A DNA stretch of 64,000 nt from Thermoanaerobaculia bacterium (GCA_036376245.1 DASVAS010000028.1:29339-93338); one strand, 5' to 3'. Positions 741 to 25,800 are shown, counted from the stretch's first letter. Made by a program: numbers and translations. Notes: a model not told the origin generated them from the letters alone.

Positions 741-756
741 CGATCGGGAGCGGACC

Positions 757-1302: not shown

Positions 1303-1321
1303 GCCTCGCGGGAGCTTTGTT

Positions 1322-3169: not shown

Positions 3170-3199
3170 CCGAGCCCTCTTGCGTTGAGGTACCTTTTC

Positions 3200-3238
3200 G
3201 GGGCGGCCGTCCACGGACGGCCGCCCCGGTTCTTTTGT
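3200..3238 (+). terminator. Rho-independent terminator.
   Basis: A 13-bp GC stem (GGGGCGGCCGTCC / GGACGGCCGCCCC) with an ACG loop, followed by GGTTCTTTTGT, lies directly downstream of the 3169 stop. Confidence 0.6.
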
Positions 3239-3291
3239 GGGGCTCCCCCTGACTGGACGGACCGCGGCCCCGCTCCGTATACTGGGTCGCT

Positions 3292-4269
3292 ATGACTTCA
3301 AGAGCTGTCCTTCCATTGCTATTGTTGGTGACTCTGCTGCCGGCTGTGGGGTGCGACAAGGCGGCCCCGGTGGCGCCCTCGGGCACGACGCTCTCGATCA
3401 GCGCGAACCCCGCGAAGATCGATTCCCCCAGCGGCACCTCCACGATCACCGTGGTCGCGCTGCGCCCGAACGGCACCCCGGTGAACCCCGGGACCCAGAT
3501 CCGCTTCAGCACCGACCTGGGCTCCATCCAGGAGGTCGCGGAGGCTGACGATTCCGGCGTCGCCCGCGCCACTCTGAGAGGGGACGGGCGGCTCGGCACG
3601 GCCACGGTATCCGCGACGACGGGCGGCGTCGCCGAGGCGGCGACGCTGGAAGTCCAGATCGGAACGCCGGCGACGTCCATCAATCTGCAGCCCAATCCGA
3701 CCACCATTCCCGAGACCGGCGGCACCGTGCAACTGGTCGCGATCCTGACCGACGCCAGCGGCCGGCCCCTCCAGGGCCGCGGAGTGATCTTCTCCACCGA
3801 GGTCGGCGAGCTCCGTTCCAACGGCACCATCCGGCAGACCAACGCCAACGGCCAGGCCACCGACCGGCTCGACGTCGAGGCGGGAGACCTGACCAACGGC
3901 CAGACGAGCTTCACCGTCAGCGTCCAGGCCGCGGGCGGCGGCGGCGAGGGTGGCGGCGCCGTCACCGACACCTTCGAGATCCGTGTGCAGGGCGGCCGCC
4001 CCGAAGCGGACTTCGACGTTCAGCGCGGAGCCACGGCGAACGAGGTCGCTTTCATCAACCTCAGCACCGGCGGCGTCGGCAATCTCGAGTACAGGTGGGA
4101 CTTCGGCGAGCCCGGCAGGCCCAACAACACCTCGACCGAGGAGAACCCGACTCACACGTATCAGAGCCCCGGCACGTACACGGTCCGGCTCGACGTGGTC
4201 GACGATGCCAACCAGTCCTCCGTCTCGATCCAGCAGATCACCGTCCCGGTGGACGACGGCAGCAACTAG
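3292..4269 (+). CDS. Lipoprotein with bacterial Ig-like (Big) repeats and a C-terminal PKD domain.
   Basis: Lipoprotein signal (LLLLVTLLPAVGC). Ig-like repeats contain TATVSATTGG. The C-terminal block EYRWDFGEPGRPNNTSTEENPTHTYQSPGTYTVRLDVVDD matches the PKD-domain WDFGDG...HTY..GTYTV pattern. Confidence 0.65.
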   Translation: MTSRAVLPLLLLVTLLPAVGCDKAAPVAPSGTTLSISANPAKIDSPSGTSTITVVALRPNGTPVNPGTQIRFSTDLGSIQEVAEADDSGVARATLRGDGRLGTATVSATTGGVAEAATLEVQIGTPATSINLQPNPTTIPETGGTVQLVAILTDASGRPLQGRGVIFSTEVGELRSNGTIRQTNANGQATDRLDVEAGDLTNGQTSFTVSVQAAGGGGEGGGAVTDTFEIRVQGGRPEADFDVQRGATANEVAFINLSTGGVGNLEYRWDFGEPGRPNNTSTEENPTHTYQSPGTYTVRLDVVDDANQSSVSIQQITVPVDDGSN

Positions 4270-9998: not shown

Positions 9999-10082
9999 AG
10001 GACCTAAAGGACATAAAGGACCTAAAGGACGGGGTGGTGGCGTCCTTTAGGCCCTTTAGGTCGTTTATGTCCTTTAGGTCCT
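9999..10082. repeat. Long imperfect palindrome built from tandem 9-mers (GGACCTAAA / GGACATAAA), which likely acts as a bidirectional terminator hairpin between convergent genes.
   Basis: Left arm AGGACCTAAAGGACATAAAGGACCTAAAGGACG, loop GGGTGGTGG, right arm CGTCCTTTAGGCCCTTTAGGTCGTTTATGTCCTTTAGGTCCT. It sits between the metallophosphoesterase stop (9983) and the ccmF stop (10074), and overlaps the last codons of ccmF. Confidence 0.6.
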
Positions 10083-12314
10083 TGCCGACCCTGCCGCCAC
10101 AGCTTCCCGGATCCGCACCTCCCGGAACCGCTGCACCGTCGACAGCAGTCCCCCGATGAAGATGATGTAGAGGCCGCCCCAGACGAGCTGGATGAGCGGC
10201 TTGCGGGTCACGTCCACCGAGAGCTTGGCCGGCAGCGCCATGCCCACGAGGTCCAACGTCACGGTGCGTTGCTCGGGATTGATGCCCGAGAGGACGATCT
10301 GGCCGCCGGTGGGGAGCTGCGCCGGCGGGGTCTCCACCGTGCCGTTCGCCGGGTTGATCCGGTAGAGCGTCATCACGTCGGCGGTCTGCCCGTCGCGGGT
10401 CACCGCCAGCCGCGCGCCCACCGTCACTGGCTGGCCCTCGGACATCGCCGCCATGGCGTTGCCCTCCACCTGGAGGTCGAAGCCCACGAACTTGATCTCC
10501 AGGTCCCCGAGCGTCCCGGACTCCCCCTGGGCGAGCTGGAGCTTCGGCTGGCCCGGATCGAAGTCGATGGGCGAGACGTAGAGGTCCTGGAACGGCGAGC
10601 TCTTGATGTCCGGGTTCGCCATCACCTGGCGGGTGCGGTCGTTGATGAACAGCTTCGGGTAGACCGTGACCGGCTTCTGGCCGTCGCGGGCGACCAGGAC
10701 CTCCATGCTCTCCTTCTCGTGGCCCTGCCGCGGGATGAAGCGCTGGAAGGTGAGCGTCATGCCCTCCACCTTCTTCGGCGTGCCCTGGACCAGCGTCACC
10801 TTGGTGCTGTGGTCGTAGGCCGAGGAGGCGATGAAGCCGAGCAGCATCACGCCGACTCCGATATGGGAGAGGTAGCCGCCCATGGCCTTGAGGCCGCCCA
10901 CCCGGTAGCGGGCGATCGTCTTCTGGACGTTGGCGGCGAGCGCCAGGGTGGCCAGGAAGACGAAGAGGATGTGGAAGACGTCGCGGACCTGCCAGACCGC
11001 CGCGGCCACGGTGACCACGAGGCTGAAGCCGAGCGGCCAGAGCATCCGGCGGAAGATTTCCCGCGGCGGCGTCCCCTTCCAGGCGAGGTAGGGAACCAGC
11101 GCCAGCAGCAGGCCGATCAGCAGGGCGATGGGCAGGTTGACCTTGTTGTAGAAGCTGGGGCCGACCTGGCTGGGGTCCGCCATGAAGCGGGTCAGCAGCG
11201 GCGCCGAGGTGCCGACGGTGATGATGACGGCGGAGATCGTCAGGGTGATCGTCGACAGCACCAGGAAGTTGCCGCGGGAGAAGAACGGGTCCTCGTTGGG
11301 GGCGGTGGGGATCTCCTTCCAGCGGGTGGCGAGCAGGTAGAGGCCGAAGAGGAGAAAACCGCCGAGGATGATGGTGAGCGGTCCCGCGATGCCGAGGTCC
11401 ACGAAGCTGTGGACGGAGAAATCGGCGAGCACGCCCGAGCGGGTGAGGAACGTGCCGTAGAGCACCGAGACGTAGGTCAGGATGGTGAACAGGTAGTTGG
11501 CCCGGCGGTAGCGCCCCTGGGTGCGCTCCAGGTAGAGGCCGTGGATCAGCACCGTGCCGAAGATCCAGGGGATCAGCGAGGCGTTCTCCACCGGGTCCCA
11601 GCCCCAGTAGCCGCCCCAGCCCAGGGTCTTGTAGGCCCAGTAGCCTCCCATCAGGATCGCCGTGCCGAGGACGAGGAAGCCGCCGAGCGCCCAGGGGAAG
11701 GCGCGGGCCGCCCAGCCGTCGTAGTCGCGGCGCAGCAGCGAGGCCATGGCGAAGGCGAAGGGGATGGCGGCCGAGGCGTAGCCGATGAACATGATCGGCG
11801 GGTGGATCACCATCCAGTCGTCCTGCAGCAGGGGGTTGAGCCCCGCGCCCTCGATGGGCGTCTGGCGCAGCATGACGAACGGGTTCTCCCGCACCAGGAT
11901 GAGCAGCAGGCTCATCAGGGTCAGCGTGTAGACCCCCATGACCAGGGGCTCGTTGCGGCCGGCGGTGCGGCGGACGAGCAGGCCGATCACGGCCCCCCAG
12001 AACAGCCAGATGAGGAAGCTCCCCTTCTGCCCGGCCCAGAAGGCGGCGAACTGGTAGTGCGCCGGCAGGTCCGTCCCCGAGTACTGGTACACGTACTCGA
12101 CGCGGAAGTCGCGCATGATCAGCAGCAGGCCCAGCACCACCGACGCGAGGACGATGGAGAGGGCGAAGAAGCCGTAGCAGCGGCGGGCGAACGGCAGCGA
12201 GCCGCCGTCGCCGGAATAGACCCGCGCGTAGCCGTAGAGGGCCGCGAAGGAGAAGAGGAGCGCGGACCAGATGGTGAGCGCCCCGGGGAGATAGAGCTGC
12301 GAGAGATAGTCCAC
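10074..12314 (-). CDS. ccmF: Cytochrome c-type biogenesis heme lyase CcmF.
   Basis: WWD domain (WGGYWGWDPVENASLIPW) and a multi-transmembrane architecture, immediately downstream of ccmE. Confidence 0.9.
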   Translation of the reverse strand: MDYLSQLYLPGALTIWSALLFSFAALYGYARVYSGDGGSLPFARRCYGFFALSIVLASVVLGLLLIMRDFRVEYVYQYSGTDLPAHYQFAAFWAGQKGSFLIWLFWGAVIGLLVRRTAGRNEPLVMGVYTLTLMSLLLILVRENPFVMLRQTPIEGAGLNPLLQDDWMVIHPPIMFIGYASAAIPFAFAMASLLRRDYDGWAARAFPWALGGFLVLGTAILMGGYWAYKTLGWGGYWGWDPVENASLIPWIFGTVLIHGLYLERTQGRYRRANYLFTILTYVSVLYGTFLTRSGVLADFSVHSFVDLGIAGPLTIILGGFLLFGLYLLATRWKEIPTAPNEDPFFSRGNFLVLSTITLTISAVIITVGTSAPLLTRFMADPSQVGPSFYNKVNLPIALLIGLLLALVPYLAWKGTPPREIFRRMLWPLGFSLVVTVAAAVWQVRDVFHILFVFLATLALAANVQKTIARYRVGGLKAMGGYLSHIGVGVMLLGFIASSAYDHSTKVTLVQGTPKKVEGMTLTFQRFIPRQGHEKESMEVLVARDGQKPVTVYPKLFINDRTRQVMANPDIKSSPFQDLYVSPIDFDPGQPKLQLAQGESGTLGDLEIKFVGFDLQVEGNAMAAMSEGQPVTVGARLAVTRDGQTADVMTLYRINPANGTVETPPAQLPTGGQIVLSGINPEQRTVTLDLVGMALPAKLSVDVTRKPLIQLVWGGLYIIFIGGLLSTVQRFREVRIREAVAAGSART

Positions 12315-12338
12315 GATCGCCTCCAGGGCCCGAAGGTC

Positions 12339-12734
12339 CTAGCTGTAGGTCTTGACCTCGGTCCCCTGATACTTGCTGGGGCACTTCACCAGCAGCTTCT
12401 CGGCATGGAACTCCTGCGCCTGGTCGTCGTAGCGGCCGATCGCCACGATGCTGACGGCGTCCTCGAAGTTGGCCGGCTTGAGGCCCTTGTAGCGGACCCG
12501 CAGGTTTTCGCCCGTCTTCGGGTCCTTGAGGGTGAAGAGGAGCGACTCCTGGGCGGACACATAGGAGGAGCTCCCCTTCTCCAGCCCGCCGGCCACCTGC
12601 ACGATGCGGTTGCCGTCGCGGGCCTTCTCGTAGGAGACGTAGGGAGTCATGGAGTCCTTGAACGCCGTGAACGAGAAGCCGGCGAAGGCCACCAGCAGCA
12701 GGCCGCCGAACATGTACAGTCGATTTTTATTCAT
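12339..12734 (-). CDS. ccmE: Cytochrome c maturation heme chaperone CcmE.
   Basis: A single N-terminal transmembrane helix followed by an OB-fold periplasmic domain (LRVRYKGLKPANFEDAVSIVAIG, EFHAEKLLVKCPSKYQ). Confidence 0.85.
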   Translation of the reverse strand: MNKNRLYMFGGLLLVAFAGFSFTAFKDSMTPYVSYEKARDGNRIVQVAGGLEKGSSSYVSAQESLLFTLKDPKTGENLRVRYKGLKPANFEDAVSIVAIGRYDDQAQEFHAEKLLVKCPSKYQGTEVKTYS

Positions 12735-12847
12735 GGCTCTTTCTCCATCTCCCGCAGCCTCTTGCCGAGGCGTAGCAGGTAGAGGAACAGTCCCGTCCAG
12801 ATGATCAGGTTCACCGCTACGATCCAGCCGTTCGCCCCCGTCAACAT
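12731..12847 (-). CDS. ccmD: Heme exporter protein CcmD (small single-pass membrane protein).
   Basis: A 38-aa product (MLTGANGWIVAVNLIIWTGLFLYLLRLGKRLREMEKEP) lies between ccmC and ccmE and overlaps ccmE by 4 nt. This is the typical CcmD position and size. Confidence 0.5.
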   Translation of the reverse strand: MLTGANGWIVAVNLIIWTGLFLYLLRLGKRLREMEKEP

Positions 12848-12858
12848 AACCCTACTCC

Positions 12859-13527
12859 TTAAGGTGCAGATTTCCGCTCCCAGAGGGTCAGGATGCGGCA
12901 CTGCAGGTTGTGGACCCAGAAGAAGAGCGCGGCGAAGCCCAGGCCGCTGGCGTACAGCACGTGCTGGATGCGCGGGTCCATCTCGACCTTGCCCGAGGCG
13001 TTGACCACGGGCTCCGGATGAAGCGAGAAGGTGATGCGGGGGACGATCCAGAACAGGAACGGCGTCACCACCAGTCCGAGCAGGGCGTAGGCCGCCGCCA
13101 GCCGCCCCCGTTTCTCGGGATCGTCCACCGACTGCCGGAGGGCCAGGTAGGCGGCGTAGAAGAGCAAAGCGGCCAGGATCGAGGTCTGGCGCGGGTCCCA
13201 GTTCCACCAGGCGCCCCACTCGATGCGCGCCCACACGGCACCGGTGACCGTGGCCAGGACGCCGAACAGCAGCCCGAGCTGGATGGCCACGGCGGCCGCC
13301 CGGTCATGGCGCGGGTCGCGGCGCAGCAGGTACCGCACGCTCCACACCGCGGCGGCGATGAAGCCGAGGAACGACGACCAGGCCATGGGCACGTGGAAGA
13401 ACACGATCCGGCTCGATCCCGGCACGCGGAAGCTCTCGGCGACCGGGGCATAGAAGAACGCTCCCACGATGACGAGGGAGATCCAGATCCAGAGCAGCCA
13501 GGCGAAGAGGGTCTTCATGGGTTCCAA
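12859..13527 (-). CDS. ccmC: Heme exporter protein CcmC.
   Basis: WWD motif (WNWDPRQTSILAALLFYAAYLAL), six transmembrane helices, and the position between ccmB and ccmD. Confidence 0.85.
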   Translation of the reverse strand: MEPMKTLFAWLLWIWISLVIVGAFFYAPVAESFRVPGSSRIVFFHVPMAWSSFLGFIAAAVWSVRYLLRRDPRHDRAAAVAIQLGLLFGVLATVTGAVWARIEWGAWWNWDPRQTSILAALLFYAAYLALRQSVDDPEKRGRLAAAYALLGLVVTPFLFWIVPRITFSLHPEPVVNASGKVEMDPRIQHVLYASGLGFAALFFWVHNLQCRILTLWERKSAP

Positions 13528-14219
13528 ACCACTGGAAAGAGCATGAGTCCGGCGACGGTTACGGCAGCATCATACAGAAGCAGCACGGGCAGGGCCACTC
13601 CGCCGGGGTCGCCGGTGACGGCGCCGCGGGTGAGCTCCACGGCCAGCACCAGCAGGGGGAGCAGCACCGGGAACGAGAGCACCGAGAAGAGGGTGCCCTT
13701 GCTGCGCGCCTGGGCGATGATGGAGGCCACCAGCGTGCTGCCCACGGCGAGGCCGTAGCCGCCGGCCGCCAGCACGGCCGCCAGCAGCCCGGGCGAGGCC
13801 ACGTCGAGGCTGGTCATGACCAGGTAGGCCGGGGTGACCAGCGCCTCCAGGGCCAGGACCAGGGTCAGCCCGTAGAGGAGCTTGCCGCAGAACAGGGCCG
13901 ACGGCGTGGCGGCGAGCCGCAGGGCCGTGGCCGTCTGGCTCTCCTCCTCCTGCACGAAGGCGCGCGGCAGGCCCGCCGCCACCGAGAACAGCAGGATGAT
14001 CCAGAGCAGCACCGGCAGCACCGAGGTCCCCTGGGATTTCATCACCCCCAGCGGCCCGAGGCTGAAGCTCACCACCACCAGCGTCGTGAAGGCGAAGAGG
14101 GCCAGCGTGTTGAGGGCGTAGCGGGTGCGGAACTCGCACCGCCACTCCTTGACGAACACGGAGGCCGCCTCGGCGGCCCACCGCCTCGCTTCAGCGGCCC
14201 AGGTCGAGTCGCTCGACAT
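13515..14219 (-). CDS. ccmB: Heme exporter ABC permease CcmB.
   Basis: Polytopic membrane protein whose N-terminus ([21 protein letters not shown]) is typical of CcmB. It overlaps ccmA and ccmC. Confidence 0.8.
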
Positions 14220-14805
14220 GATCGAAGTCCAGGTTGAAGGGGTTGGCGACCACGGCGAGGCCGCCCGCCGCCAGGTGCTCGGCCAGAAGCTCGCGGGAGA
14301 TGCGTTCGCCGGGCGCGTCGAAGTTCTGGAACGGCTCGTCCAGCAGCAGGAGCCGGGGGGAGTGGAGGAGCGCCCAGGCCCATCGAAGACGCTGCCGCAT
14401 GCCGGAGGAGAGCGCGCCCGCCATGCGGTCGAGCGGCAGGCTCAGGCGGTCCAGCACGGCGAGCCCCTTCTCGGGGCTCACCCGCCGCAACCGGGCGAAG
14501 AAGGCCAGGTTCTCCGCCACCGTCAGCTCGGAGTAGAAGGCGAGGTCCGGGGCCACGACCCCGATCCGCCGTCGCCGGGCGGCGGCGTCCAGGTCGGCGC
14601 CGTTCTCGCGGTACGCGATCCTGCCGCCGTCCGGCGCCAGGAGCCCCGCGAGGCAGCGCAGCAGGGTGCTCTTGCCCGAGCCGTTGGGGCCGGTGACGAG
14701 CAGCATGCCGCCGGTCTCCACGGCGCCCGAGACGCCCTCCAGCACGGAGAGCCGCCCGAAGCGGCGGCGGACGTTTTCGAAGTGGAGGGAAGCGGGCTCG
14801 GACAT
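14191..14805 (-). CDS. ccmA: Heme exporter ABC ATPase CcmA.
   Basis: Walker A (GPNGSGKST), the ABC signature (LSSGMRQRL) and Walker B (LLLLDEP). It is the first gene of the minus-strand ccm operon. Confidence 0.85.
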
Positions 14806-14931
14806 GTGCGCAATATAACCGCGATTCCCGCGGGCCGCCCCCGCCCATGGGGTGGGGCGGGCTTTCCTGCCTGGGAGGCCGCCCGCCTTTCGGGCCTACC
14901 CGATGGAGTGGGCCGCTTCGTATACCATTCC

Positions 14932-16941
14932 ATGACCATGACCACGAAGACGCCGCGCCGCGGTCTCGCCGCCGTCCTCCTGCTCCTGCTGTGCGCCTGC
15001 GCGTCCCGCCCCCGCACCGCGGCGGACCTCCCGGACCTCCAGGTCCCCTCCCTGGAGGAGCGGACCCTGCTGGCGCTCCTGGTGGACCGGCAGATCCTCG
15101 ACGACTTCGCCGTCCAGCAGGCGCTCAAAGGGGACGCCTCCCTGCGCGAGGACCTCGCCGTGGCCCTGGGGCGCATCCCCGACCCGCGGGGGCGGACGGT
15201 GCTGGAAGGGCTGCTGATCGACGAGGAGCCGGCGGTGCGGCGGGCGGCGGCGTTCGGCCTGGGAGAGCTGGAAGCCCCGGAGGCCCAGGAGGCCCTCTTC
15301 CGCGCCCTGCGCGATTCCGACCGCGAGACCGGCATGCTGGCCGTCGAGGCCCTGGGCAAGCTGGGCGCCCGGGTGGTGGACGTGGCCGAGGCCCTGCTCC
15401 CGCTGCCGGAAGAGGAGCGCTGGGCGCGGCTGCTGCCCCACCTCTTCCGCTTCAAGGAGGAGACCGTCGTGGCCCTGGCCGAGCGCGGGCTGACCAATGC
15501 GGACGCGGCGCTGCGCCTGCGCGCCGCCTACGCCCTCTCCCGCAACCCCCTCGCCCAGGGCCTGCCGGCGCTGCGCCGGCTGCTGGCCGACCCCGAGCCG
15601 CGCCTCCGCGCCTGGGCCGCCCGCGCGGTCGGGCTGGTGGGGGAAGGGGCGGATCTGGCGGCCCTGCGGCCGCTGCTGGACGACGCCGATCCCGGGCCGC
15701 TGGTCCAGGCCCTCCGCTCCGCCCGATCCCTGGTGGCGGGGGGCAAGGCCCCGGCGCCGGCGGACTGGGCGCCCCGCCTCACGGCGCTGCTGGAAGACCC
15801 GCGCCCCGGCGTGCGCACCAGCGCCCTGGAGGCGGCGGGCGCCTGGTCGGCGGCCTCGCCGGAGCTCGCCGCGGTCCTGATCGCCCGGGCGTCAGGCGGC
15901 GAGACCTGGGAGCGGGGGACCGCGCTGGTCTCCCTGGCGCAGGGGAAGCACCCGCGGGCCGCGGAGCTGATCGCCGCCGCCGCGGACTCCCCGGACGAGA
16001 GCCTGCGGGCGCGGGCCGCCGAGGCCGCCGGCGCCCTGGGGCTGCCGGCGGGCGGCGCGCTGCTGGAGCGCCTGGCCGGCGACGCCGTCGCCCGGGTGCG
16101 GAGCGCCGCCCTGTCGGCGTGGCTCGCGGCCGACCCGCAAGCCGGCGAGGTGGCCCGCAAGGCCCTGACCGACCCCGACCCCGGCGTCAAGGGGGTGGCC
16201 CTCGGCTGGCTGGAGGAGCACCCGGTGGCGCCGCTGGCGGAGATCCAGGCGGCCCTGCCGGCGGTCTACCGGCAGGGGCTGGAGGAGGAGGGGATGACGG
16301 CCGTGCGGGCGGTCGCCGCCCGCGCCGAGGCCGAGCCGCTGGAGCGCGGCGCCGCCGTCGCGCTGCTGGAGAGCGCCGCCGCCGCCGGCCCCTACGTGCT
16401 GCGGCGGGAGGCGGGGGCGAGCCTCGGCAAGCTGGGCCGGCCCGTGCCGCCGCTGGGTCCGGCCGACAACGGCCGGGGGGCGGACGCCTACCGGGCGATC
16501 GTGCAGCGCACGCGCAAGCCGCGCACGGTGGAGATCCGCACCCAGAGGGGCGTGATCACCGCCCGCCTGGACTGCCCCCAGGCCCCCTTCACCTGCCTGA
16601 GCTTCCTCAACCTGGCGGGCCAGGGGTTCTACGACGGCCTGACCTTCCACCGGGTGGTCCCCGACTTCGTGATCCAGGGCGGAGACCCCAAGGGGGACGG
16701 CACCGGCGGGCCGGGCTACACGATCCGCGACGAGATCAATCGCCTGCGCTACGGCCGCGGCGTGCTGGGCATGGCCCTGGCCGGCCCGGACACCGGCGGC
16801 AGCCAGTTCTTCATCACCCTCTCCCCGCAGCCCCACCTGGACGGCGGCTACACCGTCTTCGGCGAGGTCGTCGCGGGGGACGAGGTCCTGGACCAGATCC
16901 GGATCGGCGACAAAATCGAGACCATTACCGAGGTGAAATAG
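14932..16941 (+). CDS. Exported lipoprotein that fuses a long HEAT (PBS-lyase-like) repeat array to a C-terminal cyclophilin-type peptidyl-prolyl isomerase domain.
   Basis: The ATG at 14932 sits inside the longer listed ORF. Lipoprotein signal LLLLLCAC. Repeated [14 protein letters not shown]-type HEAT units. C-terminal cyclophilin motifs [15 protein letters not shown] and [21 protein letters not shown]. It is divergent from ccmA. Confidence 0.75.
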
Positions 16942-16964
16942 GGAGGTGAGGTAGACTCCACCTC

Positions 16965-17531
16965 ATGAAACACCGAATCACCGTCCCCGCCGTCCTTGTC
17001 CTTGGTGTCCTTGCCGTCCTTGTCCCCGCCGCCCAGGCCGATGACGAGAAGGACAAGAAGAAGGAGGAGAGCGTGCTGACCGGTACCGTCACCCGGGAGG
17101 CCATCGAGGCCGCCAACCCCGAGTGGGCGCAGGCGCAGGTGGAGGCGAAGCCGGACGCCGCGGCGGCGCAGGGCCTGGCGCAGGTCGAGCCGGGCGCGGA
17201 GGTCACCGTCTTCCTCGGCACCTGGTGCGGCGACAGCCGGCGCGAGGTGCCCCGCCTCTGGAGCGCCATCGACGTGGCCGGCGGCATGGTCCCCTTCAAG
17301 GTGACCTACATCGCCGTGGACCGCGACAAGAAGGATCCGGCGGGAGAGGCGGTGAAGAGCGACATCCGGTACGTGCCCACCCTGATCGTGGTCCGCGACG
17401 GCCGCGAGGTGGGCCGCATCGTCGAGACGTCGCCGCACGGCGTCGAAGCCGACCTGCTGGCCCTCCTCACGGGGAAGGCCCAGGGCGTCATCTCCACCCG
17501 GGAGGACCTGGGCGGCGGCTCCTCCCGCTAG
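16965..17531 (+). CDS. Secreted thioredoxin-fold protein with a single-cysteine CxxS active-site variant (WCGDS).
   Basis: Signal peptide (VLVLGVLAVLVPAAQA). Thioredoxin-like core VTVFLGTWCGDSRREVPRLW ... YVPTLIVVRDGREVGRI, in which the second Cys of the canonical WCxxC is replaced by Ser. Confidence 0.65.
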   Translation: MKHRITVPAVLVLGVLAVLVPAAQADDEKDKKKEESVLTGTVTREAIEAANPEWAQAQVEAKPDAAAAQGLAQVEPGAEVTVFLGTWCGDSRREVPRLWSAIDVAGGMVPFKVTYIAVDRDKKDPAGEAVKSDIRYVPTLIVVRDGREVGRIVETSPHGVEADLLALLTGKAQGVISTREDLGGGSSR

Positions 17532-17579
17532 GTCCAGGTCATACCCTGAAACTTTGATCCTGGGGCTGCGTATCCACCC

Positions 17580-18164
17580 ATGACGCGGGGAGCGGAGCCA
17601 TTGACCGACGAGGATCTGGTGACCGCGGTCCTCGAAGGCGATCGGGACCGCTTCGGCGAGCTGATCGACCGCTATCAGGGACGCCTCGTCAACTATCTGT
17701 TCCGGTTGCTGCGCAACGCTGACGACGCGCACGACCTGGCGCAGGAGGTCTTTGTCAAGGTGTATCAGGTCCTGGATCGTTTCGATCCGCACTACAAGTT
17801 CTCCACCTGGCTGTTCCGGGTGGCCCAGAACGCGGCGATCGATCAGATCCGCAGGCGCCGTCTGAAGGTGGTCTCGCTCCGGCAGGAGGACGACGAGGGG
17901 GAGAGCCGGGACTGGGACCTGCCCTCTCCGGAGCGGGGACCCTATGGCGAGATGCGCAACCAGGAGCGGGGGGAGGCGATCCATGAGGCGATCGAGACCC
18001 TGCCCTGGGAGTACCGGGAGCTGATCCTGCTGCGCCATTTCGGCGAGCTGCCCTACGAGGAGATCGCGCGGCTGAAGCAGATGCCGCTGGGGACCGTGAA
18101 GAACAAGCTTTTCCGGGGACGCCAGATGCTCAAGGAGAAGCTCCAGGACTTTCTCAGCGATTGA
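17580..18164 (+). CDS. ECF-family RNA polymerase sigma-70 factor.
   Basis: Region 2 (LVNYLFRLLRNADDAHDLAQEVFVKVYQ, FSTWLFRVAQNAAID) and a region 4 helix-turn-helix (LPWEYRELILLRHFGELPYEEIARLKQMPLGTVKNKLFRGR). Confidence 0.85.
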   Translation: MTRGAEPLTDEDLVTAVLEGDRDRFGELIDRYQGRLVNYLFRLLRNADDAHDLAQEVFVKVYQVLDRFDPHYKFSTWLFRVAQNAAIDQIRRRRLKVVSLRQEDDEGESRDWDLPSPERGPYGEMRNQERGEAIHEAIETLPWEYRELILLRHFGELPYEEIARLKQMPLGTVKNKLFRGRQMLKEKLQDFLSD

Positions 18165-18186: not shown

Positions 18187-18765
18187 ATGAACAGGCCCGA
18201 TCACAGCACCTACATCGAATGGTTGAACCTGGACGCCGACGGCCTGCTGGAAGGTGAGGAGCGGTCGCGCCTGGAAGAGCACCTGGCGGCCTGCGCCGAC
18301 TGCCGGCGCGAGCGGGAGGAGCTTCAGGCCCTGAACGGGCTGCTGCGGCGCTCCGCCATCGACGCGCGGCCGGGTTTCCGGCAGGCGGTCATGGCGTCTC
18401 TCCCCACGGCGGGCTGGGAGGTCCACTCTTCCCAGGGCTGGCGCTTCCCCGCGGCGGTGCTGGTGCTGCTGGGCGCTCTCGCGGCCGGCCTGCTGATCGC
18501 CGGCTCGGCCCCGTCCTCCGCCGGTTTCTCCACCCTGGTCGCCGTGGGCAGCCTCTTCCGCGCCGCTGTCCTGGCCGGGGCCGGCCTGCTCGCCGCCTCC
18601 TGGAAGGGGGTGGGCCTGGTCGTCGAGCGGGTGATCTCCTCGCCCGCCAGCCTGGGCGCTTTCGGCTTCCTGGTGCTCTGCCTCAACCTGCTGCTGATCT
18701 CGCTGCTCCGCCGCAAGCGCCCGGCCCGCCAGGCCGAGGGCGCGCCCTCCGATCCCAGACGGTGA
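18187..18765 (+). CDS. Membrane-anchored anti-sigma factor with an N-terminal zinc-finger (ZAS-like H-x3-C-x2-C) domain.
   Basis: EEHLAACADCRRE motif, then hydrophobic transmembrane segments. It lies 22 nt after the sigma gene and overlaps the next gene by 4 nt. Confidence 0.65.
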   Translation: MNRPDHSTYIEWLNLDADGLLEGEERSRLEEHLAACADCRREREELQALNGLLRRSAIDARPGFRQAVMASLPTAGWEVHSSQGWRFPAAVLVLLGALAAGLLIAGSAPSSAGFSTLVAVGSLFRAAVLAGAGLLAASWKGVGLVVERVISSPASLGAFGFLVLCLNLLLISLLRRKRPARQAEGAPSDPRR

Positions 18766-19649
18766 AGCTCTTCCTCTGCGCGACGCTGCTGTCCCTGCTC
18801 GCCCTGCCGGCGGGAGCCGGCGACGAGCCTGCGCTCCGCCTGGAGCCGGGGAGCACCACGCAACAGCTCGTGGGCGTGGGGCGGGACGTCATCGTCGACG
18901 GCGAGGTGCTGACCGACGTCGCGGCCCTGGACGGCTCGGTGGACGTCTCCGGCCACGTGAACGGGGACGTCGTGGTGCTGCGGGGCGACGCGCGGCTGGC
19001 CGCCACGGCCCGCGTCGACGGCGACGTCTTCGTGGTCGGTGGCACGGTGCGCACCCACGGCGGCGCCAAGGTCGGCGGGCGCATGGTCTCCTATCCCACC
19101 GCCTCCAGCGCCTGGCTCACCCTCCTGGAGGGGCCGAGCATCGGCCTCGGCTTCGCCTCCCGGCTGGTGCTGGGGACCAAGCTGGCCCTGGTCGCCGCCT
19201 GGGCGGCCCTCCTGCTCCTGTTCTTCGCCGCCAGCGGCCGGCAGGTGGTGGAGACCGCCGACGGCGTGCGGCGCGAGCCCTTCCGCAGCTTCTTCGTGGG
19301 CCTCACCGGCATCGTCTGCCTGGTCCTCACCGGCCTCTTCTTCAGCGCCTTCGCCCGCGGGGTGATCGGCGTGCCGCTGCTGGTGCTGGTGGTCCTGCTG
19401 GCCCTGGTGCTGAAGCTGTGGGGCATGGTCGCCGTCTTCTACGCCCTGGGCGAATGGATCTCCCGCAAGGTCCTGCGGCGCCGCTTCCGGCCCCTGAACG
19501 CGGCCACCCTCGGTCTGCTGGTGCTGGGGGCCGTGAAGTTCCTCCCCTGGTTCGGCGTCCTGGCCTGGACCACCGCCACGCTGATCGGCGTCGGCGCCGC
19601 CCTCTCCACCAAATTCGGCCGCCGCGAGCCCTGGTTCGAGCTGGCGTAG
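18762..19649 (+). CDS. Signal-peptide protein with a beta-helix, bactofilin-like repeat domain (DGxVxxDVxxxxGSVDVSGHVNGDVVV...) and a C-terminal 4-transmembrane domain. It is the third gene of the sigma/anti-sigma module.
   Basis: N-terminal signal LLSLLALPAGAG. A repeating G-D-V/x-V pattern characteristic of polymer-forming beta-helix (DUF583/DUF4097-like) proteins. Several C-terminal hydrophobic helices. Confidence 0.55.
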   Translation: MKLFLCATLLSLLALPAGAGDEPALRLEPGSTTQQLVGVGRDVIVDGEVLTDVAALDGSVDVSGHVNGDVVVLRGDARLAATARVDGDVFVVGGTVRTHGGAKVGGRMVSYPTASSAWLTLLEGPSIGLGFASRLVLGTKLALVAAWAALLLLFFAASGRQVVETADGVRREPFRSFFVGLTGIVCLVLTGLFFSAFARGVIGVPLLVLVVLLALVLKLWGMVAVFYALGEWISRKVLRRRFRPLNAATLGLLVLGAVKFLPWFGVLAWTTATLIGVGAALSTKFGRREPWFELA

Positions 19650-19712: not shown

Positions 19713-22700
19713 ATGCGCTCCGCGGTTGGGAGAGTCGCGCTTCTCCTGTTCGTCTCCGGCTTCTGCGCCCTGGTCTACCAGACGGCGTGGCTCCGCCTGT
19801 TCCGTCTGATCTTCGGCGCCTCCACGGCGGCCTCCGCCGCGGTGCTGGCCATCTTCATGGCCGGCCTGGGGCTGGGCGGCCTGCTGCTGGGCAAGCGGGC
19901 CGACCGCCACCCCTCGCCGCTGGGCCTCTACGCCCTGCTGGAGGCGGGCATCGCCGTCAGCGCCGGCCTGTCGCCCTGGCTGGTCGAGCTGGTGGAATGG
20001 ATCTACATCTCGCTCGGCGGCAGCGCCGCGCTGGGACTGACCGGCAGCACCCTGGTGCGGCTGCTGCTCTCCGTCCTGGTGCTCGGGCTGCCGACCTTCC
20101 TGATGGGCGGCACGCTGCCGGCCGTGGCGCGGGCGGTGGAGCGCTCGACGGACGCCGGCCGGCGGACCGTGGGCCTGCTCTACGCCGTCAACACCCTCGG
20201 GGCCGTGCTGGGGGTGATGCTCACCTCCTTCTTCGCCCTCGAGACGCTGGGGATCCGCAAGTCGGTGTGGATCGCGGCGCTGCTCAACCTGATCGTGGTG
20301 CTGGCCGCCCGCAGCCTGGCGCGCGAAATGACAGCCCGCCCGGAGGCGCCGGCCGCTCCGGAGGCCGCCCCCGAGCCGGACGGGGAGTCGCGGATCGGCT
20401 GGCTGGTGCCGCTGGCGGCCGGCGTGGTGGGCTTCGCCTTCCTGCTCATGGAGCTGGTCTGGTACCGCATGCTGGCGCCGCTGCTGGGCGGTTCCTCCTA
20501 CACCTTCGGGCTGATCCTGGCGGTGGCTCTGCTGGGGATCGGCGCCGGCGGCCTGCTCTACGGCGCGGGCGAGGCCCGGCGGCGGCCCACCATGCTCTCG
20601 TTCGCTGCCACCTGCTCTCTCGAAGCCCTGTTCATGGCCCTCCCCTTCGCCCTGGGCGACCGGGTGGCGGTGCTGGCCGCCCTGCTGCGGCCGCTGGGCA
20701 CCGCGGGCTTCCCGGCCCTGGTGGGGGCCTGGACGGCGATCACGGCCCTGGTGGTGCTGCCGGCGGCGATCGTGGCCGGCTACCAGTTCCCGCTGCTGAT
20801 CGCCCTGCTGGGCGAGGGGCGCCGCCGGGTGGGCCGGGAGGTGGGGGTGACCTACGCGGCCAACACCCTGGGGGCCATCCTGGGCTCCATCGCCGGCGGC
20901 TTCGGGCTGATCCCGCTGCTGACCGCGCCGGGCGTCTGGCGGCTGGTGACGGCCCTGCTGCTCGCTCTGGCGGCGCTGACGATCCTGGCCGGGCTGCGCG
21001 CCGGCGCGCAGCGCCGGGCCGCCCTGACGCCGCTGGCGGCGGGCGTCCTCGGCCTCCTCTTCTGCCTCTCCACGGGTCCCACCGCCTTCTGGCGGCATTC
21101 CCCGATCGGCGCCGGCCGCATGCCGACCGCCCACTGGACCGGGCCGAACGAGATCCGCAGCCAGGTCGACCAGAAGAGCCTGCGCACCGTCTGGGAGGCG
21201 GACGGGGTGGAGAGCAGCGTCGCCCTCGACCTCTCGGTCGAGTACGCCTTCATGATCAACGGCAAGTCCGACGGCAGCACGCTGGGGGACTCCCCCACCC
21301 AGGTGATGAGCGGCCTGGTGGCGGCGGCGCTGCACCCGAATCCGAAGCGGGTGCTGGTCATCGGCCTGGGCACGGGGAGCACGGCCGGCTGGCTCGCCCG
21401 CATCCCGTCCGTGGAGCGGGTGGACGTGGTGGAACTGGAGCCGGTCATCGAGCACGTGTCGCGCGTCCTCTCCAAGATCAACCTGGACGTGCTCTCCAAT
21501 CCCAAGGTCCGCCTCTACGAGGGGGACGGCCGGGAGTTCCTGCTCACCACGCGCGAGCGCTACGACATCATCTTCTCCGAGCCTTCGAACCCCTACCGGG
21601 CGGGGGTGGCGAGCCTGTTCAGCCAGGACTTCTACCGCGCCGCCATCGGGCGGCTGCAATCGGGCGGCATCTTCCTCCAGTGGCTGCAGGGCTACGAGGT
21701 GGACGCCCAGATGCTGCGCACGGCCTACGCCACGCTGACCTCGGTCTTCCCGACGGTCGAGAGCTGGCACGTCCATTACGCGGACACCCTGCTGATCGCC
21801 ACTCCCGAGCCCCTGGTCCATGACTTCGACCGCGTGCGGCGGCGCATGGCCCAGGAGCCGTACCGCACCGCCCTGGCCCGCACCTGGGGAGTCGACGGCG
21901 CCGAGGGTCTCTACGCCGGCTTCCTGGCCGCCCCCTCCTTCATCCGCGACGTGGCCGAGGCCGCGGGGGACAGCGTCAACACCGACGACCGCCCGATCCT
22001 GGAGTTCGGCTTCGCCAGGAACCTGGGCCGGCCGGGGCTGATCGACCTGTACGACGTGGCCAACCTGGTGAAGGCGCGCGGGGAGGACCGTCCGGCGGGC
22101 CGCGGCGCGCCCCTGGACTGGGGCCGGGTGGGAGAGATGCAGGTGGCGATCTCCGCCTACGAGGAGGAGATCTACCCCGATCCCGACCCGCGCGGCGACC
22201 GCGCGGCGCGGCTGCGCATCGCCGCCCGCCACGCCTGGGTGCGCGAGGACTTCCAGCGCGCCTGCGGCTACTGGTTCCGGCAGCCGCAGCCGCCCACCGC
22301 CCACGCCGACGTGCTGCTGGTGGCCGAGTGCCTCGCCGCGGCGGCGGACGCCCGCCTGCCGCAGGCCGCCGCCTGGCTCGCCCGCGAGCAACCCATCGAG
22401 GCCCAGATGGTCTTGGCCCGCTGGCACATGGCGTCCGGCCGGCCGCGGGAAGCGGCCGAGAGCCTGCTGACGGCTCTCCGCGGCTATCAGAATGACCCCT
22501 GGGTCTACCGCCCCCTGGTTCGGCGGACCCTCCCCATGGTCATCGACCTGGCGCGGTGGGACCGCGCCGTGGGGCTGCGGCTCTTCGAGACCCTGTCGCG
22601 GCCGTTCTCCACCGACATGTTCCACCACCAGCGGCTCCTCAACCGCATCTGGCTCGCCCGCGAGCTGGGCTCGCCGCGGCTGTGCGCCGAAGCCCTGGCC

Positions 22701-22856
22701 GCGTTCGAGCCCCACGTGCCGTGGGAGGAGCAGGTCCTGACCTTCCGCTACGAGTGCTACCAGGCGGCGAAGAGCCCGCTGTTGGACCGGGCGCGGGAGG
22801 ACCTGGAGGCCTACCGCGCCGCCGCGCCGCCCGCCATGACGATGGCGAGCCGATAG
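19713..22856 (+). CDS. Fused MFS-type membrane domain and spermidine-synthase-like domain protein, paralog 1 of 3 (1047 aa), with a divergent C-terminal helical domain.
   Basis: The N-terminal roughly 450 aa are polytopic. The middle is an aminopropyltransferase-like fold (VLVIGLGTGSTAGWLARIPSVERVDVVELEP..., EGDGREFL, YDIIFSEPSNPYRAGVASLFSQDFY). The C-terminal roughly 300 aa are helical. The protein is near-identical at the N-terminus to the two downstream copies. Confidence 0.8.
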   Translation: MRSAVGRVALLLFVSGFCALVYQTAWLRLFRLIFGASTAASAAVLAIFMAGLGLGGLLLGKRADRHPSPLGLYALLEAGIAVSAGLSPWLVELVEWIYISLGGSAALGLTGSTLVRLLLSVLVLGLPTFLMGGTLPAVARAVERSTDAGRRTVGLLYAVNTLGAVLGVMLTSFFALETLGIRKSVWIAALLNLIVVLAARSLAREMTARPEAPAAPEAAPEPDGESRIGWLVPLAAGVVGFAFLLMELVWYRMLAPLLGGSSYTFGLILAVALLGIGAGGLLYGAGEARRRPTMLSFAATCSLEALFMALPFALGDRVAVLAALLRPLGTAGFPALVGAWTAITALVVLPAAIVAGYQFPLLIALLGEGRRRVGREVGVTYAANTLGAILGSIAGGFGLIPLLTAPGVWRLVTALLLALAALTILAGLRAGAQRRAALTPLAAGVLGLLFCLSTGPTAFWRHSPIGAGRMPTAHWTGPNEIRSQVDQKSLRTVWEADGVESSVALDLSVEYAFMINGKSDGSTLGDSPTQVMSGLVAAALHPNPKRVLVIGLGTGSTAGWLARIPSVERVDVVELEPVIEHVSRVLSKINLDVLSNPKVRLYEGDGREFLLTTRERYDIIFSEPSNPYRAGVASLFSQDFYRAAIGRLQSGGIFLQWLQGYEVDAQMLRTAYATLTSVFPTVESWHVHYADTLLIATPEPLVHDFDRVRRRMAQEPYRTALARTWGVDGAEGLYAGFLAAPSFIRDVAEAAGDSVNTDDRPILEFGFARNLGRPGLIDLYDVANLVKARGEDRPAGRGAPLDWGRVGEMQVAISAYEEEIYPDPDPRGDRAARLRIAARHAWVREDFQRACGYWFRQPQPPTAHADVLLVAECLAAAADARLPQAAAWLAREQPIEAQMVLARWHMASGRPREAAESLLTALRGYQNDPWVYRPLVRRTLPMVIDLARWDRAVGLRLFETLSRPFSTDMFHHQRLLNRIWLARELGSPRLCAEALAAFEPHVPWEEQVLTFRYECYQAAKSPLLDRAREDLEAYRAAAPPAMTMASR

Positions 22857-22871: not shown

Positions 22872-25800
22872 ATGCGTTCGGCCGTCGCGAGAGTCGCCCT
22901 CCTGCTGTTCGTCTCCGGTTTCTGCGCCCTGGTCTACCAGACGGCGTGGCTGCGGCTTTTCCGGCTGATCTTCGGCGCGTCCACCGCGGCCTCGGCCGCG
23001 GTGCTGGCCATCTTCATGGCCGGCCTGGGATTCGGCGGCCTGCTGCTGGGCAAGCGGGCCGACCGCCACCGCTCGCCGCTTGGCCTGTACGCCACGCTGG
23101 AGGCGGGTATCGCCATCTCGGCCGGCCTGTCGCCCTGGCTGGTGAAGCTGGTGGAATGGGTCTACATCTCGCTCGGCGGCAGCGCCGCGCTGGGGCTGGC
23201 CGGGAGCACCCTGGTGCGGCTGCTGCTCTCCGTCCTGGTGCTGGGAGTGCCGACCTTCCTGATGGGCGGCACGCTGCCGGCGGTGGCGCGGGCGGTCGAG
23301 CGCTCGACGGACGCCGGCCGGCGGACCGTGGGCCTGCTCTACGCCGTCAACACCCTGGGCGCGGTGCTGGGCGTGCTGCTGACCACCTTCTTCGCCATCG
23401 AGGAGCTGGGGGTCCGCAAGACGGTCTGGATCTCGGCGCTGCTCAACCTGCTGGTGGTGCTGGCGGCGCGGAGCCTGGCCCGGCGGCTGGGAGAGGGGCG
23501 GACGGAAGAAGCCGCGGTGGAGGAGGAGGCTCCCGGAGCGGAGTCCCGGATCGGCTGGCTGGCGCCGTTCGCGGCCGGGCTGGTGGGCTTCGCCTTCCTG
23601 CTGATGGAGCTGGTCTGGTACCGCATGCTGGCGCCGCTGCTGGGCGGCTCGGTCTACACCTTCGGCCTGATCCTGGCCGTGGCCCTGCTGGGGATCGGCC
23701 TCGGCGGCCTGCTCTACGGCGCCGGCGAGGCCCGGCGGCGGCCCGCCATGCTCTCCTTCGCCGCCACCTGCGCGCTGGAAGCCCTGTTCATGGCCCTTCC
23801 CTTCGCCCTGGGCGACCGGGTGGCGGTGATGGCAGCTCTGCTGCGCCCCCTCGGGGTCTACGGCTTCGCCTCCCTGGTGGGAGCCTGGTCGGCGATCACC
23901 GCCCTGGTGGTGCTGCCGGCGGCGATCGTCGCCGGCTACCAGTTCCCGCTGCTGATCGCCCTGCTGGGCGAGGGGCGCCGCCGGGTGGGCCGCGAGGTGG
24001 GGATCACCTACGCGGCCAACACCCTGGGGGCCATCCTGGGCTCCATCGCCGGCGGCTTCGGCTTGATCCCGCTGCTGACCGCGCCGGGCGTCTGGCGGCT
24101 GGTCGCGGCGCTGCTCCTGGGGCTCGCGGCGGTGACGACCGTGGTGGGCCTGCGGGCGGGGGCCCCGCGCCGGGCCGCCCTGGTCCCTGTGATGGCGGGC
24201 GTCCTGGGGGTCGTCTTCTGCCTCGCCACCGGCCCCACGGCCTTCTGGCGGCACTCGCCCATCGGCGCCGGCCGGGTGGAGACCGCGAAGTGGACGGGGC
24301 CGAACGACGTGCGGCGGAACATCGAGGACCTGCGGCGCCGCGTCGTCTGGGAGGCCGACGGCGTGGAGAGCAGCGTCGCCCTCGACCTCACCATGGAGTA
24401 CGCCTTCATCGTCAACGGCAAGGCCGACGGCAGCACCCTGGGGGATTCGCCGACCCAGGTGATGAGCGGCCTGGTGGGCGCGGCGCTGCATCCGAATCCG
24501 AAGCGGGTGCTGGTCATCGGCCTGGGGACGGGGAGCACGGCGGGCTGGCTCGCCCGCATCCCCTCCATCGAGCGGGTGGACGTGGTGGAGCTGGAGCCCG
24601 CCATCGAGCACGTGGCCAAGGTCCTCTCCAAGGTCAATCTGGACGTGCTCTCCAATCCCAAGGTCCACCGCTACGACGGCGACGGCCGGGAGTTCCTGCT
24701 GACCACGCGCGAGACCTACGACGTCATCTTCTCCGAGCCGTCCAACCCCTACCGGGCGGGGATCGCGAGCCTGTTCAGCCAGGACTTCTACCGGGCGGCC
24801 GTGGGCCGGCTGCGGCCGGGGGGCATCTTCCTCCAGTGGCTGCAGGGCTACGAGATGGACGCCCACATGCTGCGCACGGCCTACGCCACGCTGACCTCCG
24901 TCTTCCCGGCGGTCGAGAGCTGGCAGATCCACTACTCCGACCTGCTGCTGATCGCCACCGTCGAGCCCCTGGCGCACGACTTCGACCGCGTGCGGGCGCG
25001 GATGGCCGGCGAGCCCTACCGCACCGCCCTGGCCCGCACCTGGGGGGTGGCGGACGCCGAGGGCTTCTACGCCGGCTACCTGGCCGCGCCGTCCTTCGCG
25101 CGGGCGGTGAGCGAGGCCGGGGGGGACGACGTCGTCAACACCGACGACCGCCCCGTGCTCGAGTTCGGCTTCGCCAAGAGCCTGGGCCGGCTGGGTCTGT
25201 TCGACGTCGCCAACCTCCTGGACCTGGTGAAGGCGCGCGGGGAGCACCGCCCGGCGGGCCGGGGGGCGCCCCTGGACTGGGCCAGGGTGGGAGAGATGCA
25301 GGTCGCCATCTCCGCCTATGCCGAGGAGGTCTTCCCCGATCCGGACCCGCGGGGGGACCGCGGAGCGCGGCTGCGCATCGCCGCCCGCCACGCCGCGGCC
25401 CGCGACCAGCTCCGGGAGGCCTGCGGCCACTGGCTCGCCCAGCCCGAGCCCCCCCGTGTCCACGGCGACCTGCTGCTGGTGGCCGAGTGTCTGGCCGACG
25501 CCGCCCACCCCCGCCTGCCGCAGGCCGCGGCCTGGCTGGCCCGCGAGCAACCCATCGAGGCCGAGATGGTCCTGGCCCGCTGGCACGCCGCCGCCGGCCG
25601 TCCGAAGGAGGCGACCGATCACCTGGTGGCGGCGTTCCAGGCCTACCGGTCGGACCCCTGGGTCTACCGTCCCCTGGTCCGGCGGACCCTGCCGTTGGCC
25701 ATCGATCTGGCGCGGGGGGACCGCGCCCTGGGCGCGCGGCTCTACGACGGGCTGTCGCGGCCGTTTTCCACCGACATGCTGGAGCAGCTCCGCCGGCTGG

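Follow-up and report, generated by a model that had tools for sequence, protein, structure and literature searches.

How can a cytochrome c maturation operon that carries neither ccmG nor ccmH be complete, and do two exported proteins encoded beside it stand in for the missing partners? This question is raised by 64,000 nucleotides of DNA from a Thermoanaerobaculia bacterium (GCA_036376245.1, DASVAS010000028.1:29339-93338), hereafter called the window. As a first-pass annotation of this DNA had noticed, and as our analysis bears out, the minus strand of the window holds a complete and tightly packed ccmABCDEF operon (10074-14805) with no ccmG or ccmH in the cluster. Divergent from ccmA is a gene for an exported HEAT-repeat protein fused to a cyclophilin peptidyl-prolyl isomerase (PPIase) domain, followed by a gene for a secreted thioredoxin-fold protein with a WCGDS active site, hereafter the thioredoxin-like (Trx-like) protein (Table 1). 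We propose that the operon is of the System I* type, and that the HEAT-cyclophilin and Trx-like genes are probably separate units held nearby by conserved local gene order.

The CPSKY motif of its CcmE and the alternative type of its CcmD mark the cluster, judging from its sequence, as an operon for cytochrome c maturation by System I*, a naturally occurring and already described variant of System I. The lines of evidence are as follows. First, the C-terminal part of CcmE, EKLLVK-C118-PSK-Y122-QGTEVKTYS (the codons of C118-PSK-Y122 lie at 12369-12383), has a cysteine where the canonical HxxxY motif has the heme-binding histidine. The LLVKCPSKY sequence is kept in 28/28 related ccmE genes recovered, and the sole PDB sequence match of the window CcmE is 2KCT, the Cys-type CcmE of D. 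vulgaris, to which it aligns through KCP. Second, CcmD scores 43.9 bits against TIGR04391 (CcmD_alt_fam), above the cutoff of 24, and the ccmD copy of a relative matches PF20077 (CcmD_alt). Third, none of the five remaining Ccm proteins reaches the cutoff of its canonical NCBIfam model: 122.7 vs 131.6 bits for CcmA, 28.2 vs 156.2 for CcmB, 120.6 vs 186 for CcmC and 312.7 vs 569 for CcmF (CcmF/NrfE model), while CcmE, with at most 45.7 bits against cutoffs of at least 126 across all NCBIfam CcmE equivalogs, lies far below. Fourth, the core genes ccmABC(D)EF are all there, the WWD motifs are kept in both CcmC and CcmF, and histidines occupy the expected ligand positions in both proteins; those of CcmF are H171, H258, H302 and H484, which we take to be the conserved heme-ligand positions of E. 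coli CcmF. As far as the genes tell, every part of the System I* heme-delivery and ligation pathway is present and intact. The junctions from ccmA to ccmF measure -29, -13, +11, -4 and +24 base pairs (bp), ccmD overlapping the start of ccmE by 4 bp.

System I* is said to have been described originally by Allen et al. (2006) and Goddard et al. (2010). A CcmE in which cysteine takes the place of the histidine occurs in archaea and in some bacteria, Desulfovibrio among them, and CPSKY is the majority form of the motif, found in 25 of 36 Cys-type CcmEs (PMC3601427). The Desulfovibrio System I* operon yields holocytochrome c in E. coli without CcmH and CcmG, and CcmI raises the yield of System I*, yet is dispensable (PMC3601427). 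In Methanosarcina, ccmABCEF is sufficient, the cysteine of the CxxxY motif of CcmE is required, and deletions of ccmG and ccdA have no effect under laboratory conditions (PMC9084895). Given the System I* identity of the window operon, the absence of ccmG and ccmH is therefore a recognised trait, and no substitute is implied.

The window operon resembles the Desulfovibrio and archaeal systems in its CxxxY-type CcmE, in the presence of ccmABCDEF without ccmH or ccmG, and in its CcmF, which is one polypeptide chain and has four histidines besides the WWD motif; it has a CcmD, as in Desulfovibrio. It differs from them in being known from genes alone, whereas the Desulfovibrio and Methanosarcina systems have been characterised, in its unsplit CcmF (the archaeal CcmF is split) and in its transcription order, ccmA-B-C-D-E-F, the Desulfovibrio order being presumably ccmEFABCD. 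With the canonical E. coli system, CcmABCDEFGH plus DsbD, it shares the CcmAB ABC exporter, CcmC and CcmF of the WWD type, a CcmE with the oligonucleotide/oligosaccharide-binding (OB) fold and a small CcmD, but its CcmE lacks the heme-binding histidine, its other five Ccm proteins stay under the curated cutoffs given above, and CcmH and CcmG are absent from operon and window. The host differs too: a review names delta-proteobacteria, Chloroflexi and Firmicutes (PMC3601427), whereas Thermoanaerobaculia belong to the Acidobacteriota, which is a new phylum for this otherwise known system. The Cys-type CcmE system is thereby extended to an Acidobacteriota class that is widespread in soils and sediments, and the seemingly incomplete ccm operons of Thermoanaerobaculia should be read as complete System I* operons and not be scored as lacking cytochrome c maturation.

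The first-pass annotation took the cluster for a plain System I. The operon itself was borne out, but this reading overlooked the CPSKY motif, and hence the System I* identity that explains the missing ccmH and ccmG. It is very unlikely, in our judgement, that we are dealing with an ordinary System I whose ccmG, ccmH, dsbD or ccdA genes are encoded elsewhere in the genome. Such a system would fit with the splitting of ccm genes over several loci in many organisms, with the retention of CcmH by about one third of the bacteria with a Cys-type CcmE (PMC3601427), which counts against our own proposal as well, and with a view limited to 64 kb of the genome. It is opposed by a CcmE devoid of its defining heme-binding histidine, by the alternative type of CcmD, by the scores of the five other Ccm proteins and by the relatives examined, in none of which ccmG, ccmH or ccdA adjoins ccm, including two loci with different ccm neighbours. 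None of these three genes lies within the ccm cluster of the window. In the window, neither CcmG, CcmH or CcdA/DsbD nor any CxxCH cytochrome was found by a Pfam search of about 50 called open reading frames (ORFs) and a CxxC/CxxCH motif scan of all 54.

Some other loci and genes bear on the composition of ccm clusters. In a related locus (L088, on the chromosome OY970330.1), a gene for an exported tetratricopeptide-repeat (TPR) protein of 339 amino acids (aa), at 12280-13299, starts 8 bp after ccmF and possibly encodes a CcmI-like helper; we rejected it as a conserved ccmI, as neither the window nor any other locus has a counterpart after ccmF; in the window, its protein finds similarity only weakly and at the TPR level. 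The window itself encodes, at 30140-31984 on the plus strand and within the conserved synteny block, a 614-aa protein that combines a zinc ribbon at its N-terminus with many TPR repeats. It scores 52.5 against TPR_CcmH_CycH (gathering score 42), one among 26 overlapping TPR families, and this match is probably a generic TPR cross-hit that does not indicate a CcmI. In two more distant Acidobacteriota loci, L045 (4611-7700) and L046, a HEAT-cyclophilin gene adjoins what are apparently only ccmC, a ccmD-like gene of 69 aa and a ccmF of 658 aa; ccmE, ccmA and ccmB were not detected at that cluster.

By analogy with the Desulfovibrio and Methanosarcina systems, we propose that CcmABCD loads heme onto Cys118 of the CPSKY motif of CcmE, and not onto a histidine, and that CcmF alone, by means of its WWD motif and four histidines, would then transfer the heme to the CxxCH of the apocytochrome without CcmH. 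The reduction of the apocytochrome thiols would be either dispensable or provided by unlinked genes. The HEAT-cyclophilin lipoprotein would most likely be a periplasmic folding catalyst or scaffold.

The cyclophilin part of this lipoprotein is well defined. PF00160 (Pro_isomerase) matches aa 533-661 with an E-value of 1.6e-41 and 142.6 bits (cutoff 21.7), and the domain is 40% identical to human CypA, with the equivalents of the catalytic Arg55, Phe60, Gln63 and Phe113 retained and those of Trp121 and His126 replaced by His and Tyr, respectively. The protein further shows three HEAT_2 matches and a lipobox, LLCAC, which is present in 104/120 of its homologues. It shares with the periplasmic cyclophilins of the E. 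coli PpiA type the cyclophilin domain with its catalytic residues, which makes up the C-terminal 130 aa, but unlike them it is lipid-anchored and has about 500 aa of HEAT repeats fused to that domain. The cyclophilin domain probably has PPIase activity; it would be held at the membrane by the lipid anchor and have the HEAT solenoid as a binding platform. In metagenome-assembled genomes (MAGs) of Thermoanaerobaculia, the fusion is annotated generically, as 'peptidylprolyl isomerase' only. A cysteine pair, Cys548 and Cys555 (LxC-x6-C, codons 16573-16596), stands at the start of the cyclophilin domain and is kept in 117/120 homologues; it could form a structural or regulatory periplasmic disulfide. 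The coding sequence lies in the frame of the ORF 14125-16941. A mechanically called ORF in another frame, 14847-16949, was rejected as the HEAT-cyclophilin gene, as it has no Pfam match; third-position GC (GC3) and the translation place the start at 14932.

The gene order around these proteins was compared in relatives collected by a scan with the Trx-like alignment over one genome per GTDB species. The best 80 of at least 570 confirmed loci were used, 51 of them of the Acidobacteriota type and 29 from outside this phylum (Myxococcota, Bradymonadales, Calditrichota and Flavobacteriaceae); the window proteins were placed in their flanks by tblastn, and the ECF sigma gene was counted over the loci with enough downstream sequence. 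CcmF and the HEAT-cyclophilin protein of the window have 100% identical NCBI counterparts in a Thermoanaerobaculia MAG, and the close homologues of the window proteins all come from Thermoanaerobaculia and other Acidobacteriota MAGs.

In this sample, the linkage of the Trx-like and HEAT-cyclophilin genes to ccm is broken in several species. A HEAT-cyclophilin gene lies upstream of the Trx-like gene in 33/39 species loci; in the 6 others (L008, L009, L010, L013, L014 and L062), the Trx-like gene and the adjoining genes of an extracytoplasmic function (ECF) sigma factor module stand without HEAT-cyclophilin and ccm genes. Two loci, L016 and L038, have HEAT-cyclophilin, Trx-like and ECF genes without ccm, and in L003/L004 a distance of 5 kb separates the HEAT-cyclophilin and Trx-like genes, with ccm about 12 kb further on the same contig. 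The ccm genes are absent near the Trx-like gene in L001/L010, L003, L008, L009, L013, L014, L016, L038 and L062. On the closed 8.78-Mb chromosome OY970330.1, ccmABCDEF lies at 4.80 Mb (L088), beside accBC-thiE-aroK-metallophosphoesterase, a solitary HEAT-cyclophilin gene lies at 6.55 Mb (L087) and the Trx-ECF genes are at 6.47 Mb (L062); the three units are mutually unlinked, 1.7 Mb separating the Trx-like gene from ccm. Other genes are inserted at both the ccmA/HEAT-cyclophilin and the HEAT-cyclophilin/Trx junctions in L050, and the gene spacing implies similar insertions in L051. An unrelated metallophosphoesterase gene beyond ccmF keeps its position in 19/22 loci; as it is as syntenic as the candidate partners, their adjacency reflects general local synteny within one class. 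Outside Acidobacteriota, no ccm (within 10 kb), HEAT-cyclophilin or ECF gene of the window type was found by tblastn in the flanks of the 29 loci.

Several observations weigh against the separation of the three units. The HEAT-cyclophilin gene is divergent from ccmA, in the window over a shared region of 126 bp, and this arrangement is found in 27/29 testable species loci, and the Trx-like gene immediately adjoins the HEAT-cyclophilin gene in 29/33. As the adjacency persists down to CcmF identities of about 57%, a lineage-specific functional link is conceivable, and OY970330.1 retains all three units, which leaves co-occurrence at the genome level unrefuted. In addition, the lack of both CcmH and CcmG is observed for the operon, the 64-kb window and the ccm loci of the relatives, we infer the roles that we propose for both neighbours, and the function of the Acidobacteriota ccm genes is carried over from Desulfovibrio and Methanosarcina.

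These observations lend themselves to another explanation, namely that in Thermoanaerobaculia the HEAT-cyclophilin protein, alone or with the Trx-like protein, serves the CcmH-less system as a lineage-specific accessory, a periplasmic chaperone or thiol handler of apocytochromes that would replace CcmH, CcmI or CcmG. Besides the conserved divergent arrangement, both proteins are exported to the compartment of heme attachment, and the HEAT repeats weakly match the bilin-lyase type proteins NblB, CpcE and CpcF, enzymes that form Cys-vinyl thioethers. These matches, however, are far below the cutoff, and matches of the NblB or CpcE/F type are common for bacterial HEAT repeats. Helpers are plausible, as CcmI boosts the output of System I* (PMC3601427), but System I* also works heterologously without extra factors (PMC3601427, PMC9084895). 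Moreover, the synteny of unrelated housekeeping genes is just as strong, L003, L016, L038 and L087/L088 have lost the linkage while keeping all the genes, the Trx-like homologues of other phyla have none of the window's ccm genes within 10 kb, and the Trx-like protein has no CcmG-like features. We therefore regard an accessory role as improbable. A more specific version, in which the HEAT-cyclophilin protein was recruited as an apocytochrome chaperone of the CcmH-less System I*, possibly together with the Trx-like protein, appears very improbable; in it, the alpha-solenoid would bind the CxxCH segment in its unfolded state and the PPIase would help folding, with one heme-binding cysteine kept in a mixed disulfide by Cys88 of the Trx-like protein. 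Unless the accessory role proves true, neither family changes the picture of cytochrome c biogenesis.

The Trx-like protein itself also speaks for its independence from the System I* operon. Its gene starts 23 bp past the HEAT-cyclophilin gene, and its active site is FLGTW-C88-G-D-S91 (W87-S91 at 17223-17237), with YVPT as the cis-Pro loop. The serine of the CxxS site is family-wide and no lesion, since WC[GSDE]DS is found in 118/120 top homologues; an alignment of 26 sequences shows no variation at C88, D90, S91, R93, E94, P96, R97 and W99, and keeps the cis-Pro loop as well. This WCxDSRRxVPR family counts more than 1,200 detected homologues in several phyla. In Nannocystis, for example, the WCGDS protein is a lipoprotein encoded between a P450-like gene and a leucine-rich-repeat gene. 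A literature search on exported CxxS thioredoxins yielded nothing on this family.

The Trx-like protein scores 24.9 bits against Pfam Thioredoxin and 17.1 against Thioredoxin_9 (PF14595), below the cutoff of 25, which places it outside the latter family. No Redoxin, AhpC-TSA, TlpA or DsbE (TIGR00385) model matched it in Pfam and NCBIfam, the latter giving only a weak thioredoxin match, and a profile search of the PDB returned classical thioredoxins only, at about 28 bits or less. The AlphaFold (AF2) model, with a mean predicted local distance difference test (pLDDT) score of 83, has a thioredoxin fold preceded by an N-terminal extension of three helices. Foldseek matches it best to 1Z6N, PA1234 of P. 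aeruginosa (TM-score 0.47-0.52), and then to classical thioredoxins; the 50 best matches include no structure of CcmG, ResA or TlpA. The match to PA1234 extends over 151 aligned columns, more than those of the classical thioredoxins among the top hits, but at 15% identity and this TM-score it is a resemblance and not a membership, and PA1234 being of unknown function, it gives no mechanism. PA1234 is presumably of the Thioredoxin_9 (PF14595) type.

With proteins of the CcmG/DsbE/ResA/TlpA type, the Trx-like protein shares an exported thioredoxin fold, a nucleophilic cysteine after a tryptophan and a cis-Pro loop. It differs from them in its CGDS site, the resolving position of the dithiol CxxC being a serine in 118/120 homologues and 26/26 aligned sequences, in the absence of a model or structure match to them, and in its lack of a steady linkage to ccm or conserved association with cytochrome c genes. 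TlpA-type proteins have a beta-hairpin and a central insert, and the window protein differs from them by its three-helix N-terminal extension. The name 'TlpA family protein disulfide reductase', given to homologues in some database entries, is in our view an over-annotation that these tests do not support, and the protein should not be named CcmG, TlpA or DsbE. A non-canonical apocytochrome-handling module, as suggested in the first-pass annotation, is thus not supported: System I* needs no replacement, the neighbour has neither a CcmG-like model match nor a CcmG or ResA structure among its 50 best structural matches, and its linkage to ccm breaks. As the nucleophilic Cys88 has no resolving cysteine beside it in the protein, it can act only as a sulfenate, or by forming a mixed disulfide that a partner or a small thiol would have to resolve. 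As candidate partners, the anti-sigma factor, the DUF8173 protein and the 55-aa peptide described below have no conserved periplasmic cysteine.

What, then, is the Trx-like gene associated with? In Acidobacteriota, an ECF sigma gene directly follows it in 47/47 loci, and the whole sigma/anti-sigma/DUF8173 block does so in the same 47, including the six loci without HEAT-cyclophilin and ccm genes. The sigma and anti-sigma factors have the domains and the HxxxCxxC motif of an ECF sigma factor and its zinc-binding anti-sigma (ZAS) factor, together with a promoter-like block of the AAC-N16-CGT type. This constancy, and the gap of only 48 bp between the Trx-like and sigma genes of the window, are consistent with the Trx-like protein being a working part of the ECF module, either as a redox sensor or input to the anti-sigma factor or as a co-expressed effector, unrelated to ccm; a natural CxxS site would suit a stable mixed disulfide or sulfenate usable as a signal. 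This remains doubtful for the following reasons. First, the 48-bp gap holds the sequence GAAAC-N16-CGTA, ending 7 nucleotides (nt) before the sigma ATG, and TG(A/C)AACCTT-N13-15-CGTA is kept just upstream of the sigma ATG in every related locus. It is presumably an ECF-type, autoregulatory promoter, and it lies after the Trx-like gene, with no second copy before the Trx-like or the HEAT-cyclophilin gene in the window. Second, a periplasmic domain is all but lacking from the anti-sigma factor, whose sole cysteine outside the zinc finger is in a transmembrane (TM) helix. Third, the 55-aa membrane peptide of relatives is free of cysteine and absent here. Fourth, outside Acidobacteriota this ECF sigma gene follows the Trx-like gene in 0/25 loci with enough downstream sequence. 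Hence the suggestion of the first-pass annotation that the Trx-like gene may belong to the downstream ECF operon stands as regards synteny, but the sigma gene has a putative promoter of its own after the Trx-like gene, which is therefore a constant neighbour and not a demonstrated part of the sigma-autoregulated transcript.

We tentatively favour a role of the Trx-like protein in envelope thiol stress over one in apocytochrome handling, because the ECF module is its sole constant partner in Acidobacteriota; the promoter position, the fact that neither the anti-sigma factor nor the DUF8173 protein has a periplasmic cysteine, and the lack of an ECF link in other phyla keep this role no more than possible. 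Two uncharacterised but widespread exported families are flagged by this work, the monothiol thioredoxin-fold WCxDSRRxVPR proteins and the HEAT-cyclophilin lipoproteins.

As regards transcription units, of the 26 loci with a GGTA(A/G)ACT box, 24 have it at 5-10 nt before the Trx-like start, with or without a HEAT-cyclophilin gene upstream, which suggests that the Trx-like gene has its own transcription start. Extra ECF-promoter matches in four related loci were discarded, as they fall inside the region coding for the Trx-like signal peptide and are probably coincidental. A simple consensus scan detected no convincing terminators or sigma-70 promoters, including in the spacer between ccmA and the HEAT-cyclophilin gene. 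In the window and most loci, the CGTA -10 element ends 7 nt before the sigma ATG, implying a leaderless or nearly leaderless sigma mRNA. Many relatives have, in the gap between the Trx-like and sigma genes, a further small and conserved gene whose 55-56-aa product is free of cysteine and is predicted to have two TM segments (L001 10615-10782, L003 10629-10796, L005 10587-10757); in the window (17532-17579) and in its closest relative, L007, the gap is about 50 bp and this gene is absent.

The features discussed are collected in Table 1. The G+C content of the window is about 70%, and mechanical ORF lists from such high-G+C DNA contain many spurious frames; genes were therefore called by GC3 and checked against Pfam and NCBIfam.

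Table 1. Position in the window and supporting evidence of the ccm operon, its neighbours and the putative promoter elements.
Feature	Position	Strand	Evidence
ccmF, heme lyase, 746 aa	10074-12314	-	Pfam Cytochrom_C_asm and CcmF_C; WWD motif
ccmE, heme chaperone, 131 aa	12339-12734	-	Pfam CcmE 1.3e-17; CPSKY
ccmD, alternative type, 38 aa	12731-12847	-	TIGR04391 CcmD_alt_fam
ccmC, 222 aa	12859-13527	-	Pfam/NCBIfam; WWD motif WGAWWNWDP, His46, His170
ccmB, ABC permease, 234 aa	13515-14219	-	Pfam CcmB 5.8e-17
ccmA, ABC ATPase, 204 aa	14191-14805	-	Pfam ABC_tran; best NCBIfam TIGR01189 ccmA
ccmA / HEAT-cyclophilin spacer, divergent, 126 bp	14806-14931		sequence
HEAT-repeat and cyclophilin PPIase lipoprotein, 669 aa	14932-16941	+	Pfam Pro_isomerase, HEAT_2
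GGTAGACT box, possible own -10 of the Trx-like gene	16950-16957	+	7 nt before the Trx-like ATG
Exported monothiol thioredoxin-fold (Trx-like) protein, 188 aa	16965-17531	+	signal peptide; weak Pfam Thioredoxin
Putative ECF-type promoter GAAAC-N16-CGTA	17548-17572	+	sole match in the window
ECF sigma factor	17580-18164	+	Pfam Sigma70_r2, r4_2
zf-HC2 anti-sigma factor, three predicted TM segments	18187-18765	+	Pfam; H32-x3-C36-x2-C39
Exported bactofilin-like/DUF8173 membrane protein	18762-19649	+	Pfam; DUF8173/Bactofilin annotation in relatives

The rest of the window offers a few minor observations. At its start (1-4269, plus strand), a secretin gene (21-740), inside which the window begins, is followed by genes for surface proteins with TIG/IPT, invasin-D3, Big_1 and PKD domains; the same secretin and surface-protein genes flank the accBC side of ccm in L088. 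Three tandem paralogues of about 1,050 aa on the plus strand (19713-22856, 22872-26018 and 26032-29193) combine membrane segments like those of the major facilitator superfamily with a spermidine/spermine synthase-like domain, and are represented by one copy in the relatives whose gene tables were read. On the minus strand, three genes (57210-58823, 58820-60352 and 60446-62029) encode proteins of 510-537 aa with coding-type GC3 and no Pfam match at E <= 0.001. Finally, the region 33853-36916 on the plus strand encodes a GntR-family regulator, an ABC ATPase and then an ORF of about 634 aa (35012-36916; start uncertain) which has no Pfam match and may be the permease partner of the ABC ATPase.

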